Made by a program: the position numbers and the translations under genes. From the NCBI GenBank assembly GCA_028868715.1, contig JAGWUB010000002.1, positions 8,430-72,429 on the forward strand: a DNA stretch of 64,000 nucleotides, read 5' to 3'. Origin of the DNA: Patescibacteria group bacterium. Its GTDB lineage: Bacteria > Patescibacteriota > Minisyncoccia > Phycocordibacterales > UBA9973. The notes beneath the pieces are model-generated. The model was not told where the DNA came from and ran no database searches. It was given only the letters and a program-made list of their open reading frames with translations. Positions 21,623-22,461 of the stretch are shown here, piece after piece (the stretch's first letter is position 1; every line of letters starts with the position of its first letter).

Positions 21623-22135
21623 ATGAACAAAAAGCAAGAGGTAAAATCACAGAAAATATTAACTCAAGCATATACTGACTACAAAGATATGCTTAGTAAG
21701 CGAGCTTTTTTTAAAGTGAACGATCGGGTGGTTAGTGAATACTTGGTACAAGATACTTTTATAAAAACTTGGAAATATCTTATGAAAGGAGGGAAGATAG
21801 AAATAATGGGAGCTTTTCTCTATCACGTTTTGAACAATCTTATCGTAGATGAATATAGAAAACATAAAACAACTTCTCTCGACTCGCTTTTAGAAAAAGG
21901 ATTTGAGCCACGCGCTGAAGATCACGAGCGGATCTTTGATGCCTTGGATGGAAAGACTTCATTTGGGCTAATAGAGCATCTGCCTAGAATATATAAGAAA
22001 GTAATACGTATGAAATATGCCCAAGATTTATCGCTTAAAGAAATGTCTCAAATCACCGGAAAATCAAAAAATGTCATTGCGGTGCAAACTCATAGGGGAT
22101 TAGAGAAACTTAAATTATTGTATAATCCTGCTTAG
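21623..22135 (+). CDS. ECF-type RNA polymerase sigma factor
   Basis: LVQDTFIKTW, AFLYHVLNNLIVDEYRK (region 2); SLKEMSQITGKS...HRGLEKL (region 4). Confidence 0.9.
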   Translation: MNKKQEVKSQKILTQAYTDYKDMLSKRAFFKVNDRVVSEYLVQDTFIKTWKYLMKGGKIEIMGAFLYHVLNNLIVDEYRKHKTTSLDSLLEKGFEPRAEDHERIFDALDGKTSFGLIEHLPRIYKKVIRMKYAQDLSLKEMSQITGKSKNVIAVQTHRGLEKLKLLYNPA

Positions 22136-22140
22136 TCTTT

Positions 22141-22403
22141 TTGTGTCCTCGGCAGGATATCTCGGTTTACCACCGCGGGTGCTTTTCCGTTTAGTTTTAC
22201 TAAACATGGAAAAGCCTTTCGCTTCCTGCCCGAAATAAAGCAGTTTATTTCTCTCGGACACAGTTGTGTCCTCGGCAGGATATCTCGGTTTACCACCGCG
22301 GGTGCTTTTCCGTTTAGTTTTACTAAACAAGGAAAAGCCTTTCGCTTCCTGCACGAAATAAAGCAGTTTATTTCTCTCGGACACACTTGTGTCCTCGGCA
22401 GGA
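22141..22403 (-). repeat. two tandem 123-bp units downstream of tRNA-Arg, each ending in a copy of the tRNA 3' end
   Basis: 22141-22263 and 22264-22386 differ at 3 positions; ttgtgtcctcggcagga occurs at 22141, 22264 and 22387. Confidence 0.95.
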
Positions 22404-22461
22404 ATCGAACCTGCAACTACTCCTTAGGACGGAGTCGTTATATCCATTTAACTACGAAGAC
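22390..22461 (-). tRNA. tRNA-Arg(CCT)
   Basis: GTCTTCGTAGTTAAATGGATATAAC..ACTCC-GTCCTAA-GGAGT..GGTTCGATTCCTGCCGAGGAC-A. Confidence 0.93.

Follow-up and report, generated by a model that had tools for sequence, protein, structure and literature searches.

Two tandem 123-bp units stand directly behind a tRNA-Arg(CCT) gene of a Patescibacteria group bacterium, within what we call the window (the whole 64,000-nt stretch of DNA that was analyzed), and they belong to a family of gene-less modules located 3′ of tRNA and tmRNA genes. The family is real, widespread and of the same kind as the tRNA-linked repeats (TLRs) of E. coli, whose function is unexplained. Our preferred reading, to which we give an even chance, is that the module inserts as folded single-stranded DNA at the T-loop and that its arms are copied from each target gene. 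If an element adapts itself to about 40 different targets with neither guide gene nor integrase, that would be a new route to site-specific insertion. The same blueprint is found on up to half of the tRNA genes in rich genomes, numbers that suffice to show target copying of the arms, and the E. coli copies make such copying testable in a laboratory strain. The modules also mislead island and att-site calling in these genomes. The literature that we searched, lying mostly outside subscription journals and with the older TLR papers beyond its coverage, contains no description of these modules in Patescibacteria.

Two tandem units behind tRNA-Arg(CCT)

A reading of this DNA from its letters alone had described two tandem 123-bp units with 3 differences between them, each rebuilding the tRNA's 3′ end. 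Tandem Repeats Finder (period 123, 2.1 copies, 97% matches) and an alignment of the units agree with this, placing the differences at unit positions 1, 34 and 57, and the same 17 bp (T60 to the 3′ end) close the tRNA gene and both units. With one inserted base, the closing direct copy of unit 1 extends back to tRNA position 57. All of the stems that had been named (an acceptor-like closing stem, a hairpin with a CTGC loop, a T-stem-like stem and a long arm) are present in the predicted fold, and the complements to the acceptor and T-stem 3′ strands that the unit was said to carry were located as inverted copies in both units. The 25-nt insert interrupts the inverted copy between tRNA positions 66 and 65, and the terminal small hairpin has a GTA triloop in most family members.

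Features of the tRNA-Arg(CCT) locus, in positions of the window
Feature	Position	Equivalent in unit 2	Strand	Basis or remark
tRNA-Arg(CCT), target gene	22389..22461		-	ARAGORN and Rfam; T-loop 22403-22409; without encoded CCA
Unit 1, 123 bp, tRNA-proximal	22264..22386		-	Repeat finding and unit alignment
Unit 2, 123 bp, 3 differences from unit 1	22141..22263		-	Repeat finding and unit alignment
Inverted copy of acceptor 3′ strand; fold-back turn with tRNA tail	22379..22385	22256-22262	-	
Hairpin 1, CTGC loop, in fixed-length 25-nt insert	22353..22375	22230-22252	-	
Inverted copy of T-stem 3′ strand and T-loop, 11/12 bases	22341..22352	22218-22229	-	
Long arm of common module, AAA triloop at tip	22304..22338	22181-22215	-	
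Terminal small hairpin of module, weak variant here	22285..22301	22162-22178	-	
Direct 17-bp copy of tRNA 3′ end, closes unit 1	22264..22280		-	
Direct 17-bp copy of tRNA 3′ end, closes unit 2	22141..22157		-	
Sigma-70 region 2/4 (ECF-type) gene, convergent, context only	21623..22135		+	Ends 5 bp from array

The two units have predicted folding energies of −45.3 and −48.8 kcal/mol (z −5.75 and −6.54); no shuffle out of 200 reached such stability. The fold of the 106-nt core by itself is weaker (z −3.07). The reverse strand of the units folds equally well (z −6.7 and −7.0), so that folding alone does not name the strand, and each unit contains a terminator-like hairpin on the plus strand, the strand of the sigma-factor gene. 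A two-component pair, the convergent sigma factor and tRNA-Phe are the neighbors of the array. Among 14 neighboring frames scanned there is no integrase gene, as the earlier reading had noted for the vicinity, and the two reading frames that cross the units, 89 and 94 aa long, match nothing in Pfam.

Units 1 and 2 have in common one changed base in the inverted T-loop and one inserted base in the direct copy. Because these derived changes are found in both, the tandem at tRNA-Arg(CCT) most likely arose, to judge from the letters, by later duplication of an existing unit between its 17-bp direct repeats. In a congener, a single unit keeps the left half and has another arm, which still pairs; given this and the changes common to units 1 and 2, the unit predates the source species.

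Whether the repeat is physically present bears on the possibility, raised with the initial description, of an assembly artefact, here extended to a chance duplication at one locus. Contigs were available from four sequencing runs, all of one sample and one study. In three of the four, the unit lies on a contig of 122–153 nt at a depth of 28.8, 15.4 and 19.2, against flank depths of 8.6–14.1, 4.2–8.8 and 7.3–8.0, respectively. The four runs come from what may be the source sample of the assembly itself, and among the pieces listed none spans the whole array, both of which an artefact would allow. Against it stand the 3 positions at which the units differ, the depth of the unit at 2–3 times that of its flanks, homologues in 118 genomes and arrays of at least 2 units in 24 other scored cases. 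As far as contigs tell, the repeat is not an artefact, and we find that explanation scarcely credible. On two 153-nt contigs the letters of unit 1 run across a unit junction, which we read as at least two identical copies of unit 1 in part of the population, or as what may be a circle.

A module family with arms that follow the target gene

The source genome, 600 kb in 2 contigs, contains 4 family sites behind 3 tRNAs, with related units also behind tRNA-Gly(TCC) and tRNA-Gln(TTG) whose arms each fit their own tRNA. An exact-pattern search of 185,579 genomes returned 70 loci, 66 of them under Patescibacteria-group titles, 2 named only "bacterium" and 2 on short contigs under other names. A covariance model of the kind suggested with the initial description was built from 20 units; 19/22 stem pairs have compensatory changes (0/500 shuffles as high). 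The model matches 118/151 genomes of the order, with 18–25 matches in each of five rich genomes, and only 3 of the 120 sampled from other parts of the phylum. In a census made without the model, 21/40 and 17/34 tRNA/tmRNA genes have a module in two rich genomes covered almost whole, as do 4/41 and 0/22 genes in two model-negative genomes. The targets comprise 39 tRNA types and tmRNA. A related module type is also present at a 5S-rRNA-like sequence, where it occurs twice, once per orientation, with a 14-bp direct repeat of the 3′ part, in parallel with E. coli RrA/B/F.

At the orthologous Arg(CCT) gene, 2/18 scored loci are filled (one of the 18 has only 19 nt of flank; one further locus was not parsed). 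In the 24 scored arrays of at least 2 units, the tRNA-proximal arm matches the tRNA better in 9, worse in 2 and equally in 13 (p 0.065), which is only suggestive of the newest unit lying next to the tRNA. The initial description had offered, as one option, a non-autonomous element integrating at tRNA 3′ ends with att duplication. The family, its empty and filled sites and its arrays support such an element; an ordinary att duplication does not account for it, because the arms of one and the same module change with the tRNA gene behind which it lies and none of the integrases searched tracks the module. The other option had been co-transcribed tRNA-like RNAs; each of the two is right in direction and incomplete. 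No match to the modules was found in the phages and plasmids searched, searches of viral contigs gave 0 and 15 chance matches, and there is no replication-strand bias (27/48).

In tRNA numbering, a unit leads from the intact gene through a turn, the reverse complement of positions 73–66, a 25-nt hairpin insert, the reverse complement of positions 65–54 and the module to the direct copy. The turn is an intrinsic-terminator-like hairpin, a mini-hairpin or a few bases, the last of these at tRNA-Arg(CCT). The hairpin insert measures 25 nt in 49/69 units and 23–26 nt in 62/69, and the common module consists of a long arm and a terminal hairpin, in several types that mix. The direct copy starts at position 57, with 0–1 base of homology before it in 73/82 units; it is 8 to more than 40 nt long and ends within 14 nt in 25/82. 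Some units have additional small hairpins at fixed points. The direct copy often stutters where it begins, modules are often mosaic, and their lengths are not biased toward 3n. In many modules (five loci) the loops contain inserted short GC-rich palindromes, which suggests a general hairpin-inserting activity.

Several loci depart from the common form. A second module type, with another arm and another end motif, has its junctions in common with the first type and forms mixed arrays with it. A third type, missed by the model, lies behind two Ser genes and one Met gene in one genome, its inverted T-arm copy only 5–45 nt after the gene. At seven loci, cargo that was inserted later, in the acceptor 3′ strand, separates the module from its tRNA, and several of the cargo ends have a common short motif. 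In the source genome, tRNA-Met on contig C1 (187640–187790) is followed after 12 nt by a partial T-arm copy without a module.

The match between arms and tRNA was scored over loci with 345 distinct tRNA genes, 152 of which have a module anchor within 220 nt. The arm matches its own tRNA at 8–9 of 9 bases in 121/152 anchored units, compared with 7% for other tRNAs, and most of the 21 poor arm matches belong to a neighboring tRNA's module or to a chance anchor. Among 131 units pre-selected at 7/9 matching, rare T-loop bases are mirrored in the arms in 40/42 cases of a non-T at position 59 and in 17/19 cases of an A at position 57. At wobble or mismatch positions of the tRNA stem, the arm has the Watson-Crick partner of the 3′-strand base (T stem 20/21, acceptor 20/22) and never copies the 5′ strand. 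In 17 within-genome pairs of different tRNAs, the modules are 90–100% alike over 50 nt, and the arms have their own tRNA's base at 85/96 diagnostic positions and the partner's at 5; the pairs overlap and are not independent. Since alike modules stand behind different tRNAs with arms that match their own tRNA, the module appears to move or to be converted between genes, with its arms rewritten, and we consider it likely that the inverted arms are copied from the target gene and not inherited with the module. Where the direct copy and the intact tRNA disagree, the arms side with the intact tRNA (15/16 and 11/12). We had considered this as a sign that the intact gene is the older copy; a direct copy that decays would produce the same pattern, which therefore gives no position for the crossover.

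Folded strand, candidate mechanism and alternatives

On the sense strand of 81 distinct modules, GNA triloops occur 63 times against 7.5 expected, and on the other strand 4 times against 4.2; 47 of the 63 represent one conserved terminal hairpin, so they are not independent, and the units at tRNA-Arg(CCT) are without a canonical GNA loop. RNA tetraloops in the same 81 modules number 7 against 4.7 expected for GNRA and 2 against 1.1 for UNCG. The sense strand has the better energy in 72/80 units with DNA parameters and in 67/80 with RNA parameters, and hairpin 1 has 15 G-T pairs against 2 A-C pairs, a bias that fits RNA as well as sense-strand DNA. Given these energies and the excess of G-T over A-C, the sense strand is by all sequence indications the folded one. 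Mini-hairpins of this kind are reported to have a far greater stability as DNA than as RNA and to occur at phage single-stranded DNA priming sites (PMC13037366). The loop chemistry accordingly leans toward single-stranded DNA, with RNA also compatible.

The structure of the product, its match to the target and the precision of its junctions are observed; the chemistry and the order of the steps that follow are conjectural. If the module inserts as folded single-stranded DNA, heavy transcription would expose the sense (non-template) strand, a nick would fall after the TTC of the T-loop, and the freed 3′ end would re-copy the tRNA tail. This strand would then turn at the terminator or mini-hairpin and run back over the tail to give the inverted copy, which might alternatively come from transfer of the target's own bottom strand. 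The 25-nt hairpin would be spliced into the inverted copy at 65/66, and a module strand from another locus would be joined in and sealed by its 3′ end to the displaced position 57. The tRNA gene would be left intact, so the event could recur. Our guess at the enzyme is a hairpin-recognizing strand-transfer activity with HUH-like chemistry, acting with host polymerase, and co-transcription and release of a unit RNA, as in E. coli TLRs, would be an expected by-product. GTTC precedes position 57 in 131/131 units, but it is universal in tRNAs and partly built into the parser; because of this universality, the likeness to the IS91 target proves nothing.

For a partner enzyme, we compared 28 of the 32 genomes with at least 10 matches with the 20 listed of 33 without a model match, a group that is not clean, one "zero" genome having three modules of another type. 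Among these listed genomes none of the families searched tracks the modules: Y1 transposase is present in 20/28 module-rich versus 11/20 model-negative genomes, reverse transcriptase (RVT_1) in 12/28 versus 7/20, serine recombinase (resolvase) in 15/28 versus 12/20, small GIY-YIG in 24/28 versus 12/20, and one XerC/D-like tyrosine recombinase in 48/48 (28/28 versus 20/20). The source genome and two of the richest ones have no Y1, not even by a tailored profile; IS110 and Cas1 were found in 0/5 genomes, as was Y2 in a search run without a positive control. Subtracting one whole and one 60%-covered negative genome from the proteomes of two rich genomes left 38 frames, many of them spurious. Two nuclease-like candidates among them, which we take to be DUF2779-like and DEDDh, were rejected as they do not track the modules (3/28 versus 2/20 and 18/28 versus 9/20), and among the proteins listed of the 301 shared ones there is no evident dedicated enzyme. 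At 22 loci no module was found beside Y1, reverse transcriptase or recombinase genes at E < 0.29, 12 Y1 loci from the order have no module nearby, and none of the 70 loci in genomes and 74 distinct sites in metagenomes has a gene-carrying (autonomous) module. Of 71 left halves, one is without a right half, and one metagenome module is without a tRNA within 230 nt.

Some genes of these kinds do lie near tRNA genes or hairpins. On contig C2 of the source genome (86924–87374), a small GIY-YIG nuclease gene follows within about 100 bp of the tRNA-Gln(TTG) module, and small GIY-YIG genes adjoin tRNA genes at two other loci. The Y1 transposase-like genes of the order (220–250 aa) are flanked by their own short palindromes or by simple repeats, unrelated to the tRNA modules. 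An island on contig C1 (215200–226260) ends in tRNA-Ser(GGA) and contains methyltransferase, restriction-like and Vsr-like genes as well as the genome's one large serine recombinase (586 aa), whose last codons traverse the tRNA gene on the other strand.

The unit could instead, though we think this less likely, be a functional co-transcribed tRNA-trailer RNA, acting as a processing signal, a terminator aid or a small RNA sponge, with its helices under selection and its modules homogenized by gene conversion. The units are always in tRNA sense, the fold has acceptor-like and T-like helices, the module stems covary, and the congener keeps the left half with a different but paired arm; the better folding of the sense strand with RNA energies (67/80 units) and the 15:2 ratio of G-T to A-C in hairpin 1 also fit an RNA. 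For the E. coli TLRs behind 5S rRNA, transcription, processing and binding to Hfq and CsrA are on record (PMC8144298). What makes us doubt this account is that the arms are exact Watson-Crick complements in 40/43 cases where RNA selection would accept wobble, and that they mirror T-loop bases besides. The closing helix is lost in the 25/82 units in which the direct copy ends within 14 nt, 16/18 orthologous Arg(CCT) sites are empty, the loops are GNA triloops and not GNRA or UNCG, and RNase E/G was not found in the source genome. Deletion of three E. coli TLRs that give processed RNAs had modest effects, and the repeats are described as having "no known function" (PMC8144298).

Explanations at the level of DNA other than the one we prefer do without a dedicated enzyme or invoke an integrase. 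Replication or repair template switches at terminator and T-arm hairpins could produce direct-inverted-direct triplications, with the module acquired by recombination through T-loop bases common to the loci; the lack of any enzyme family that tracks the modules would then be expected, as would the common stutters and mosaics, and the E. coli units, which contain an inverted whole T-arm and a second direct T-stem strand with their own tRNA best in 9/9 rows, have the form of such a product. The base-precise recurrent junctions (position 57; 25 nt at 65/66) fit a specific activity better, however, and the near-confinement to one order (118/151 versus 3/120 elsewhere in the phylum) also speaks against template switching, which we regard as unlikely. 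Slightly more unlikely, in our judgment, is that the modules are scars or minimal satellites left by elements with a tyrosine or serine integrase, the tRNA 3′ end being their att core. The tRNA tail is indeed directly repeated, large serine recombinase islands end in tRNA genes here with some modules at their far end, and the unit-to-unit junction contigs could be circles; yet one module occurs with many different tRNA tails (17 pairs) whereas an att core is fixed, att duplication yields no inverted copy, neither serine nor tyrosine recombinases track module number, and there is no cargo between the module ends.

Comparison with E. coli tRNA-linked repeats and other systems

To our knowledge, the E. 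coli tRNA-linked repeats have been unexplained since 1978. The RtT model (Rfam RF00391) gives 17 matches in K-12, 13 of them over the cut-off, behind Tyr, Pro, Lys, Arg and Ser genes. The analogy with the tyrT/rtT repeats drawn in the sequence-only reading holds, the K-12 plan being the same: a terminator turn, an inverted copy of the own T-arm, a module with a GNA triloop and a direct copy from about position 58. At tyrV each unit has an inverted copy of the tRNA-Tyr T-arm (10/12 at three offsets). Over all K-12 inverted copies the own tRNA is best in 11/13 rows, with 2 ties (the Pro row being mislocated), and in 9/9 rows when both T-stem strands are scored, and GNA triloops number 22 against 1.3 expected in 13 segments. 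Three 181-bp units at serX (1097022–1097564), unannotated in the record, each repeat the terminator and contain an inverted whole Ser T-arm. The inverted copy of E. coli TLRs may have been described before, by Rudd 1999.

No match to RF00391 was found in the window, in 4 Patescibacteria genomes or in 101 genomes of the order, and the best E of the Patescibacteria covariance model on the E. coli loci is 2.4; the Patescibacteria unit resembles a TLR in how it works and falls outside RF00391. TLRs are gene-less, stand in 1–5 tandem copies directly behind tRNA or 5S genes and end in a direct copy of the 3′ end; E. coli has 22 copies at ten loci, defined by an 18–19-bp 3′ repeat, and neither a function nor an origin has been known for them in more than 40 years (PMC8144298). 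The words inverted, mobile and duplication are absent from that paper. The array at tRNA-Arg(CCT) is alike in its two copies and in the 17 bp identical to the tRNA 3′ end. The K-12 tyrT-tyrV repeats (RtT RNA, RF00391) measure 178 bp, and the E. coli inverted copy comprises the whole T-arm, whereas in Patescibacteria the 25-nt hairpin divides the inverted copy, which ends at the T-loop and does not track the 5′ T-stem strand; occupancy is far higher in Patescibacteria, at about half of the tRNA genes in rich genomes. We tentatively entertain, at well under an even chance, a wider reading in which both belong to a cross-phylum class of mobile single-stranded DNA modules, whose enzyme would open any tRNA gene at the T-loop, write a mirror copy of its tail and seal in a donor module. 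The E. coli TLRs would then be older products, and Paceibacterales-type Patescibacteria would be where the process is still active.

The att duplications of tRNA-targeting elements resemble the units in the direct repeat of the tRNA 3′ part and in leaving the gene intact, and serine-recombinase islands use the same genes in these genomes; the modules differ in having an inverted copy, many tails for one module, and neither integrase nor cargo. With IS91 and IS200/IS605/REP-RAYT HUH systems the modules have in common strand-specific hairpin ends and, if they move as proposed, single-stranded DNA intermediates. IS91-family enzymes insert after GTTC or CTTG via single-stranded DNA circles (PMC13181058), and REP-RAYT comprises mosaic hairpin arrays moved in trans (PMC3733652). 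We take the IS91-type enzymes as the closest precedent for insertion of single-stranded DNA after GTTC. HUH elements, however, neither duplicate the target nor make an inverted copy of it, whereas the modules have direct copies of 8 to more than 40 nt, and three module-bearing genomes have no Y1 gene. In integron attC cassettes and CTX-type att sites, a single strand folds back to restore a double-stranded site that has a bulged element, and tandem arrays occur. An integron integrase is not indicated in our genomes, most of which have a single XerC/D-like gene. The fold-back strand and the tandem arrays are features that the modules have in common with attC and CTX sites, but the arms of the modules copy the chromosomal target and change with it.
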